DNA of 64,000 bases from Eledone cirrhosa. Its lineage: Eukaryota. Position numbers and translations under genes: made by a program. The stretch's first letter is position 1, and every line of letters starts with the position of its first letter. Below, piece after piece: positions 24,629 through 37,575 of this stretch. Under the pieces are notes generated by a model. It did no database searches and was not told where the DNA came from. It worked only from the letters and a program-made list of their open reading frames with translations. The stretch is from the NCBI GenBank assembly GCA_964016885.1, contig OZ024744.1, positions 103,416,001 through 103,480,000 on the forward strand. The letters run 5' to 3'.

Positions 24629-25255
24629 GTGTTAATATAATTGTTTCTACTTTTGGCACAAGGCCAGCAATTTCCCAGTGTATTACTGGTACTTTATTTG
24701 TTAATATAATAATATTTAGAAATAGTTATTTAGTAGATGGTTAGAGAGATATATAGATATGTAGATGTTGTGTTAAGAATGTATGTATTTGTGTATTGTA
24801 TCACAGAAGTCACCATTGAAGATGTTAAAAGCAATGTTGTGGTAAATAGCATCATTCGACTTTATAATGTTTATAATATATAATTTATTTACAAACCGAT
24901 TACAAAGGTGTAGCTGGCATACCAAGAGAAGTGAATAGACAAATTAAGAGTTTAAGGAGGTACGGTCAACTGGCTGAGGCGTTAGCCAGACCCGTAGTGA
25001 TATTTGTTGCTACATATTGTCTATGCTTGAGGAACGAAATCAAGAGATGTTTACCTTCACGGTGTCGAGCTGCAAGAGAGAGTATCGAAAAGAAGCGGGG
25101 AATTTTTTCCCTCTGGGCGGAAGTCGAGATACATCTCCCTACGCTGGTAGTGATTGGCTGAACTGAGCCAAACAACGTACGGAGAATGTATCCATGAACC
25201 CTCGGAATGTAGGTCGCTACAGATATATACACAGCATGTTTAAACTGTAACTGAC

Positions 25256-25315
25256 CTTCAATTCGCACCATACCGCCACAGGTTGTACAGCAATCACGAC
25301 CATCTGTGTGAGAGA
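25256..25315 (-). CDS. Micro-exon 8 (60 nt, phase 1-1); peptide (V)SHTDGRDCCTTCGGMVRIE
   Basis: tatttttcag|TCTCTCACAC...CGAATTGAAG|gtcagt; same length, splice context and flanks as exons 7 and 9; no stop. Confidence 0.75.
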
Positions 25316-25319
25316 CTGA

Positions 25320-26120
25320 AAAATATATATATATATATATGTGTTTATATATGTATATGAACATCATCAACATCATCATCATTATGGTCATCATCTTCAT
25401 TAAAGTCACCATCATTTTTGTCAACCTCATCATCATCATCACCATCATCCTCATCAATATTATCGTTATCATTATCAACATCACTATCATCATCAACAAA
25501 GTCATCCTCACCATTATCACCACTATCATCGTTATCATCCTCCTCATTATCACCACTAACATCATCATCATTAACACAATAATCATCACCATCATTCACC
25601 ACCATCATCATCATCATCATCATCATTACAATCATCCTCATCATTATTGTTATCACTATTATCATCATCACCATCATCACCATCATCATCACCATCATCA
25701 CTCATTATCAACATCATCACCACCATTTAACATCTCTTTTACCTGCCAACAGGGTTTGGACTGGTTATTAAAGACCAAGTCCATACTGAAGTGGTGTTTA
25801 TGATATCTCAGTTGGCTGGGTGACAACATCTCACATACAAACATATGTTTCTGCCCTTTATCAAGTACCTGATATGTTGGGACCAACACTAGGTAGATTG
25901 TCATGTTTATGACATAGCTGAAGAAACCTACCAACCCTTTTCTTGGTATGTTCTCTATGACCAGATACCCTTCCTATCACCTACCACTTCCTATCACTTA
26001 CAGAAGAATGTAGTAGGTGTGTATATCACCAACACTAGGTAGGTTATCATGTTTATGACACAGGAGTAGTCACAATAGTTTATTTGGTAAGTTTTCTATG
26101 TCTACATGTAATTACTATCA
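25320..26120. repeat. Duplicated intron module (paralog of 36960-37575) carrying single seed copies of both satellite monomers
   Basis: 25698-25934 vs 37152-37388 differ at about 3 positions; 60-mer at 26001-26060; 51-mer-like seed at about 25630-25680. Confidence 0.9.
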
Positions 26121-26377
26121 TCATGATATAGGCCTGTATGGAAAACAGGGAATTTATTACATAGTGTGTCTAAGATAAAATAGTCCACCAAACCGCATGT
26201 ATCAATGCCGTCAAATGATCTCAATGGCACATCGAATGTGTCGTTGTTAGGGGATTTCTTTAACCATGGGTGGCCGTATATTAATAGAAAGAGAAGTACA
26301 AGTTATACTTAAAAGATATTTCAATGTAGAGCAGTGGGACATACCACAATACATACGAGGTATCTGTCCATCGCTCT

Positions 26378-35832: not shown

Positions 35833-36729
35833 CCGGGTGCGGACGCCATTTTTTCGCAATTTTCAACTGCTAATTTTATTCAAATATATTTTACTTCCGT
35901 TGTCACTCTTGTCTTAATAAAAACAGTGACTATATTTCCATTATTTATTTTCAGAATAATTGATTATGAATAATTTTGAGCCTCCAAATTTGTGGAAGAG
36001 ACACAGAGTTCTTCTTGGAATCCGCGCCGGGAGGACAAATAAGGAAACTTCAGACTTTCTCAGCGTCAGCAGGAGAATGGTGTCTCATCCAAAGACGTGC
36101 CCAGAGTCATGCAAATAAAGTTTCCAGCGACAACATTGGTCTTAGGTGTCGACAGCAGTCATGGTGACGTCATGCCACCTCACTTCTTCCCTGAAGGCCT
36201 GAAGCTGAACACCAATGGCTATATCCGCGTTCTGAGCGAGGTAGTAAAGTAAAGCCCTGCATCGACCAGGTAGCTGCAGGTAGGCTGTACATGTGGCAGC
36301 AAGACTCAGCGCCCTGCCATACCAGCCAAAAGACCCAAGCCTGGCTGTCAGAGAACTTCGTCGACCACACTTCACCTGACATCTGGCCTCCTAGCTCGCC
36401 TGACTGCAACCCCCTCGACTTCTTTGTGTGGGGCGTAATGGAATGAGACACCAACAAATCTAGCTGCAATACGAAAGACGATCTGAAGGCCAGAATCACA
36501 AGTGCCTTTAGAGGCCTACGTCGGGGGACAGTGACGAAGGCCTGTAGCCGGTTCCGAGGCCGCCTTGAAGCCGTCATCAAAGCCAATGGAGGGTTTATCG
36601 AGTGAGATCGAAAGAACAAGTCATGAAGACAAACTGACCCAAGTTTGATAAATATATCTTAAAAAATAAAACTACTGTGTTATTTTTTCCTAGACAGTAA
36701 TCTTGCGAACAAATATCTTCCGCACCCTG
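35833..36729 (+). mobile_element. Tc1/mariner superfamily, DD37D (maT-type) DNA transposon, internally deleted
   Basis: Imperfect TIRs ccgggtgcggacgccattttttcgcaa / ttgcgaacaaatatcttccgcaccctg in TA context; WQQDSAPCH...WPPSSPDCNPLDFFVWG at about 36294-36434 with 37 residues between the last two catalytic Asp. Confidence 0.85.
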
Positions 36730-36895
36730 TGTATATATATATATATATAAATAAAATTAAAAATATATATATATATATACATATGTCTCATATACATTTG
36801 TTGATACACACACATTTCACATATACAAACACAACCTTACAATGTACTATGTTAATATAATAATATATACACAGCATGTTTAAACTATAACTGAC

Positions 36896-36955
36896 CTCTA
36901 TCTTGGGAACTACAGTCACATGTAGACCAATCAGAATCATATATGACGCCAAAGT
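36896..36955 (-). CDS. Micro-exon 7 (60 nt, phase 1-1); peptide (D)FGVIYDSDWSTCDCSSQDR
   Basis: tatatttcag|ACTTTGGCGT...CAAGATAGAG|gtcagt; 50/60 identical to exon 9; no stop. Confidence 0.75.
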
Positions 36956-36959
36956 CTGA

Positions 36960-37575
36960 AATATATATATGAGTGTTTATGTATGTATATGAACATCATC
37001 ATCATCATCATTATGGTCATAATCTTCATTAAAGTCACCACCATTTTAGTCAACCTCATCATCATCATCATCACCACCCTCCTCATCACTATCATCACTT
37101 TCATCTTCCTCCTCATTATCACCACTAATATCACCATCATAATCACCATCATCACTCATTATCACCATCATCACCACCATTTAACATCTCTTTTACCTGC
37201 CAACAGGGTGTGGACTGGTTATTAAAGACCAAGTCCATACTGAAGTGGTGTTTATGATATCTCAGTTGGCTGGGTGACAACATCTCACATACAAACATAT
37301 GTTTCTGCCCTTTATCAAGTACCTGATATTTTGGGACCAACACTAGGTAGATTGTCATGTTTATGACATAGCTGAAGAAACCTACCAACCCTTTTCTTGG
37401 TATGTTCTCTATGACCAGATACTCCTCCTATCACTTTACAGAAGAATGTTTATGACATAGAAGAATGTAGTAGGTGTGTATATCACCAACACTAGGTAGG
37501 TTATCATGTTTATGACACAGGAGTAGTCACAATAGTTTATTTGGTAAGCTTTCTATGTCTACATGTAATTACTAT
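36960..37575. repeat. Duplicated intron module (paralog of 25320-26120) with one 60-bp satellite monomer at about 37448-37518
   Basis: Near-identical to 25698-26115; contains gtttatgacatagaagaatgtagtaggtgtgtatatcaccaacactaggtaggttatcat once. Confidence 0.9.

Follow-up and report, generated by a model that had tools for sequence, protein, structure and literature searches.

The window analyzed here, a stretch of 64,000 nucleotides from Eledone cirrhosa (G000:C28:103416001-103480000), is crossed by a predicted gene, gene A, on the minus strand. The SINE and microsatellite content of this DNA has an octopod appearance. Coordinates without a contig prefix are window coordinates run on past both ends, negative values lying before position 1. 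The model of gene A was built from scans for splice sites and flank homology. It extends over at least 333 kb, with introns of up to 171 kb, and comprises an ATG exon (76028-76148, minus strand), which encodes 40 residues plus one base, and 20 internal micro-exons of 18 to 66 nt. The first ten internal exons measure, in order, 45, 30, 18, 18, 27, 60, 66, 42, 60, and 60 nt, and the next ten measure 60, 60, 36, 42, 42, 60, 42, 54, 42, and 48 nt. All 20 are symmetric (3n), open, and in the same phase, and the joined exons read as 344 residues free of stops. A perfect CRE octamer, noticed post hoc, lies about 150 nt upstream of the ATG (L032:2290-2300, minus strand).

Within the window, all on the minus strand, are the micro-exons called here exon 9 (18917..18976; 60 nt, matching exon 7 at 50/60 positions), exon 8 (25256..25315; 60 nt, symmetric, with phase-1 introns on both sides), exon 7 (36896..36955; 60 nt, symmetric), and exon 6 (37870..37911; 42 nt, with a copy at -15150). 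They are accompanied by a symmetric micro-exon of 66 nt (47574..47639), a symmetric 60-nt one of another module type (55606..55665), a 27-nt member of a family of 18/18/27-nt modules (55818..55844), and two 18-nt micro-exons (60068..60085 and 63869..63886). The first of these two has a GC-AG donor at 60066-60067, where its two sister modules carry GT. Long inverted repeats (56035-57110, 57440-59040, and 59190-59930), probably foldback or MITE-like elements, occupy introns that separate the 27-nt exon from the 18-nt ones; tandem arrays of 51 bp and 49 bp (45243-46264 and 48301-48670) lie within retroelement or SINE remains; and the 11.6-kb intron separating exons 7 and 8 holds retroelement remains with RVT_1 and GIY-YIG (27461..34515). 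Rfam gave 0 matches across 25200-38100.

Satellites make up large parts of these introns. Positions 1..17790 are the end of an intronic 60-bp satellite of about 200 kb in all, reaching about -185655. One minus-strand frame of this satellite runs without a stop over its 17.8 kb in the window; we treat the long open frame as a probable by-product of a homogenized repeat. The CAT tract in the module of exon 9 has given rise to a 51-bp tandem array (19764..24164), and right after the last module of gene A lies a 48-bp satellite longer than 300 kb (G000:C28:102812001-103136000), in which 19/19 probes were satellite. About 18 tandem copies of a unit of about 2.5 kb, from about -199500 to -247400, contain an acceptor-flank fragment of a 42-nt module and no exon.

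A paralog, gene B (G000:C28:103553482-103761889), starts at 137482 on the plus strand, head to head with gene A. It has 15 symmetric exons of 15 to 63 nt (where several acceptors were possible, the one yielding a 3n exon was picked), a short terminal exon of 27 residues, and a module family of its own with six copies. Copies of parts of gene B, namely, B' and a broken one, lie rearranged on both strands at G000:C28:102732793-102792523. They hold two first exons, one identical at 135/136 positions and the other broken, an exon 2 whose donor is weakened, and a terminal exon. The terminal exon of gene A was not located; that of gene B, used as a query, matched only itself and relatives, which lie on the minus and plus strands at C28:102.74 and 102.79 Mb. 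Many exons have been duplicated along with the adjoining intron sequence, and modules with common flanks fall into the family of five 60-nt copies, a 36-48-nt family, the 18/18/27 family, and the six-member family of gene B. The first-pass annotation missed this scale, that of a gene family with 15 to 20 micro-exons per gene.

The gene model is predicted from DNA alone, and parts of it have decayed: the last three (3') modules of gene A show a frameshift, no normal acceptor, or a stop, the 3' modules of gene B are also broken, and the exon-2 donor of B' is weakened. These features, together with intronic satellites 200 kb and over 300 kb long, would suit a view of the segments as decaying relics or a pseudogene rather than expressed exons. 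We consider that view very unlikely, since the core of the gene retains the marks of coding sequence. A donor scan without a filter over the 255-kb core gave 15 hits, every one an open 3n exon of gene A, with a matrix trained on the same exons and after an earlier scan that had retained open 3n exons only. In the frame that the ATG exon fixes, 0/21 exons bear stops, compared with 12/21 and 19/21 in the other frames. Length changes between intact homologous exons are multiples of three, one acceptor shift included, and splice sites persist even though most module pairs have 60-85% of their residues changed; a neutral exon with 22 changes would acquire a stop half of the time. Three short-read runs, whose intron coverage is DNA-like, gave no exon-to-exon joint among the matches listed.

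Exons 7 and 8 contrast markedly with the introns around them. Of the five copies in the 60-nt family, exon 8 has diverged the most, and the closest relative of exon 7 by exon sequence is exon 9, not exon 8. By module alignment, the duplicated module of exon 8 spans 25224..26121 (31-nt donor flank, exon, TA/CAT microsatellite, and distal intron block) and that of exon 7 spans 36864..37578. The first-pass annotation had described a pair of exons 42% identical beside introns 99% identical, and its counts were reproduced on recomputation. Both exons are 60 nt long, lie between AG and GT on the minus strand, and are open in phase 1; they match ungapped at 25/60 positions, their donor flanks match at 30/31, and the distal intron blocks (25698..25934 and 37152..37388) differ at 3/237. 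Both percentages needed qualification. The ungapped count overstates the divergence, as two compensating 3-nt gaps bring the exons to 34/57 (60%), and the 99% holds for the best block only: the full distal block differs at 16/430 positions (96% identity over 430 nt) and the exon-proximal acceptor flank at 8/119, so that the module overall is 93-99% identical. Large CAT-microsatellite indels lie between the proximal flank and the distal block, and the donor-side sequence common to both modules stops about 31 nt from exon 8. The contrast that stands, an exon about 60% identical inside a module 93-99% identical, is real and beyond chance, since the donor motif occurs three times in the window and in 0 of 100 shuffles, and since the contrast is also found in other module pairs; exon 6 and its copy at -15150 match at 100/100 donor-flank positions versus 25/42 exon positions.

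An assembly chimera of the near-identical introns would produce a similar picture, and no listed short-read contig covers exon 7 along with its distal block. Short-read contigs do contain the block as it occurs at exon 8, recognized by two marker letters, beside its exon 7 counterpart, and they carry the 42-nt paralog exons at -10083 and -15150 letter for letter within near-identical flanks (the runs derive from a single sample, and the assembly itself may have been built from them). With the contrast recurring across many modules and in two genes, a chimera is exceedingly improbable. Independent recent insertion of a transposable element behind the 99% block was ruled out in a search of the 3.0-Gb genome: only three long copies with at least 92% identity were present among the 150 of 156 matches listed, and all three lie inside gene A (counts from the matches listed are lower bounds). 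The third copy is 210 kb away (C28:103230048-103230409), and relatives on other contigs, among the matches listed, are partial and 67-90% identical.

We examined the exon differences by codon position. Under the codon alignment that is best at the nucleotide level, exons 7 and 8 show 22 differences in 18 codons, falling 7/12/3 on the three codon positions, with 15/18 residues changed, a pN of 0.49, and a pS of 0.08, the latter near the 4-7% by which the flanks diverge. Only 5/753 comparable runs of neutral simulations with realignment attained this skew. A protein-based alignment gives a much weaker contrast (positions 9/11/6, pS 0.33, pN 0.52). Among gap-free comparisons, the differences fall 6/3/1 between exons 7 and 9 and 7/7/2 between exon 6 and its copy at -15150. 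Counted column-wise, the five 60-nt exons give 16/15/11, which is not significant (p=0.21), and in older module pairs pS is near or above pN. In ten non-overlapping pairs, which we chose ourselves and which cover 20/37 modules with few codons, 79/112 residues have changed and the differences fall 43/48/27 (p=0.009), while the flanks differ at 88/906 positions. A maximum likelihood codon model, fitted to these ten pairs with code written in-house, gave an omega of 3.8 / 3.3 (p=0.0004 / 0.0012); the values were 2.8 / 2.4 (p=0.011 / 0.024) without the exon 7/8 pair and 4.9 / 4.6 (p=0.003 / 0.004) for the six gap-free pairs, which leave exon 8 out. With its neutral distance fixed to that of the intron, the exon 7/8 pair needs an omega of about 22, which is extreme and is not rejected; a neutral distance of up to 0.3 is allowed. 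As an internal control, B and B' differ at 1/136 positions in the first exon, 4/229 in the flank, and 11/48 in micro-exon 2. The 7/12/3 skew and the pooled omega above 1 bear out the diversifying selection proposed in the first-pass annotation, and selection for amino-acid diversity is likely the main explanation of the contrast between exons and introns.

The same annotation had offered homogenization of the introns as an alternative, and this, or else constraint on the flanks, also gains support, from the third copy, with its exon at -186443, and from a flank common to genes A and B. The distal block of exon 8 differs from that of the -186443 copy at 6/250 positions (2.4%; 97.6% identical), and private changes in 257 columns number 0 in the exon 8 copy, 3 in the exon 7 copy, and 6 in the -186443 copy. 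The exons reject so short a history: compared with the -186443 exon, exon 8 is incompatible with a neutral distance of 2.4% (LRT 20.6; exon 7, LRT 4.3), and the exon of this copy is, judged by its sequence, much older than the identity of its distal block indicates. Between genes A and B, the acceptor flanks of exon 2 show 2/208 differences even though these genes are otherwise unlike, their first exons barely aligning. Pooled NG86 pS (0.24) exceeds flank divergence (0.10; p=0.0009), with same-residue codons differing at only 2/33. Both modules, that of exon 7 and that of exon 8, carry the 60-bp satellite unit in their distal intron blocks, within which the satellite arose. Given the -186443 block, the A/B flank, and the excess of pooled pS over flank divergence, homogenization by conversion or constraint on the flanks likely acts in addition to selection, the two not being separable.

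These observations would also fit an account in which the duplicate exons are old and roughly neutral and gene conversion repeatedly homogenizes the introns, halting at the diverged exon. Conversion cannot by itself spare third codon positions, however, as the 7/12/3, 7/7/2, and 6/3/1 distributions require, and omega exceeds 1 in the gap-free pairs. We regard this account as improbable; gene conversion is likely a contributor and not the sole cause. Even less credence is due to a mutational process targeted to exons, such as error-prone copying, editing written back to DNA, or templated patches from elsewhere, an idea similar to one raised for conotoxin exons in the accessible portion of PMC3862624. 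The exon rates are indeed very high, and transversions account for 70/118 changes in exons versus 36/88 in flanks, but third codon positions are spared, the spectrum is not dominated by A/G changes (27/118), and the genome search, which detects close matches only, gave no second copy of exon 8. We consider this process most unlikely.

Our main reading, to which we assign a probability of roughly 0.7, is that exons 7 and 8 are in-frame cassettes of a predicted gene of about 20 micro-exons, likely diversified by selection, and that recombination likely homogenizes some of the introns. Many cassettes have been duplicated with their flanks, change at amino-acid positions has far outpaced that at silent positions and in flanks, and recombination between copies likely maintains the similarity of some intron blocks. 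Symmetric internal exons could be gained, lost, or skipped with the frame unbroken, and, because every internal exon is symmetric, alternative splicing might generate a combinatorial set of variants. The near-identical flanks provide a built-in clock, with which exon birth, selection, and intron conversion are measurable for each copy.

The products of genes A and B are acidic and Ser/Thr-rich. By hydropathy, no signal peptide or transmembrane stretch is evident in either, although a further exon may lie upstream of those modeled: the best 19-residue Kyte-Doolittle mean is 1.11 (A) and 1.07 (B) within the first 35 residues and 1.28 (A) and 1.07 (B) over the entire product. The earlier analogy to toxins and other secreted proteins is accordingly weak, because the first coding exons contain no hydrophobic stretch resembling a signal peptide. 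The N terminus of gene A carries a Cys-rich cluster, which we take to resemble lipid-anchor motifs. Micro-exons are too short for protein searches, and only the two first exons were searchable; with queries of 21-45 residues, these gave nothing at E<=1 among longer proteins, a weak negative. Three weak protein hits were dismissed as unrelated repeat proteins. Short queries likewise make weak negatives of the Pfam scan of three gene pieces, which gave no family, and of the Atlas search, which gave no usable hit.

In view of the hydropathy results and the Cys-rich N terminus, we consider it likely that the product is a recognition protein, largely unstructured and either cytosolic or lipid-anchored, engaged in an arms race. 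As to the arena, we tilt slightly and tentatively toward the male germ line or gamete recognition, based on the CRE octamer and the giant satellite introns, for which Drosophila fertility genes, with their expression in the male germ line, provide an analogy. A role in immune or self-recognition is almost as probable, some other arena is somewhat less so, and a secreted or venom role is unlikely because no secretion signal is evident. More broadly, and again only tentatively, we suggest that the locus may represent a cephalopod family of giant micro-exon genes that arrived independently at a MEG/bicycle design, with an intracellular protein and combinatorial splicing yielding a hypervariable recognition repertoire, either gamete or self/non-self. 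Cassettes would be copied within and between the head-to-head genes, introns would be swapped and homogenized, and each cassette would diverge at a rate as much as 15-20 times neutral. A free-living mollusc gene of this design without a secretion signal would be a specific candidate for gamete or self-recognition in cephalopods. A literature search on cephalopod or octopus micro-exon genes, with thin coverage of subscription journals, found nothing relevant.

Several known systems share parts of this architecture. In Dscam-type arrays, recognition diversity comes from exons duplicated in tandem inside a single gene, and exon duplication of this kind is seen here as well. The alternative exons of Dscam-type arrays encode parts of Ig domains and are mutually exclusive, whereas a Pfam scan of three gene pieces here gave no domain and the module types are interleaved. 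The pattern of exon-over-intron divergence is already known from conotoxin genes, which, as described in the accessible portion of the source, have conserved microsatellite-rich introns, a hypervariable exon, and trinucleotide indels (PMC3862624). Gene A resembles them as a mollusc gene with such divergence, conserved microsatellite-rich introns, and 3-nt indels. Conotoxin genes have two or three exons, one a conserved signal exon, and vary between genes (PMC3862624), in contrast to gene A, in which the variation lies between exons of one gene with at least 21 coding exons and no signal exon seen. The five 60-nt exons have one invariant Cys only and hence no fixed cysteine framework.

Aphid bicycle genes, according to the part of the source consulted, are hemipteran salivary effectors, numbering in the hundreds, with a CYC motif and about 17 small internal exons that nearly all begin at codon position 2; they are under strong positive selection, and their homology is lost to BLAST/HMMER (PMC9168663). 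The micro-exons of gene A likewise all begin at codon position 2, but only a few clustered genes were seen here, with no secretion signal evident, and the CYC motif was absent from the exon peptides by inspection. Micro-exon genes of this kind are easily overlooked by annotation and homology search.

Schistosome MEGs, as far as the available portions of the sources describe them, have many short, mostly symmetric (3n) exons of 6-81 nt, 10-20 per gene, separated by long introns of up to 5 kb; they lie in TE-rich surroundings, include recent duplicates, have high dN/dS (whole-gene values to about 1.1), possess a signal peptide in every case, and are described as flatworm restricted (PMC4350168, PMC10526429). 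Genes A and B are similar in that they code mostly in short symmetric exons (20 and 15, respectively), in TE-rich surroundings, with recent duplicates and omega above 1. They differ in having no signal-like stretch, a pooled omega of 3-5, and introns of up to 171 kb and in that many of the exons visibly arose as copies of exon-plus-flank modules. Gene A was assigned to neither the MEGs nor the bicycle genes, its product having no evident signal peptide and its exon peptides no CYC motif. In the portions of these sources available, same-phase micro-exon genes under strong positive selection are described as secreted effectors of parasites and gall-makers (PMC4350168, PMC10526429, PMC9168663); if our reading is correct, a free-living mollusc would possess a gene of MEG/bicycle design without a secretion signal, which would point to a different conflict.
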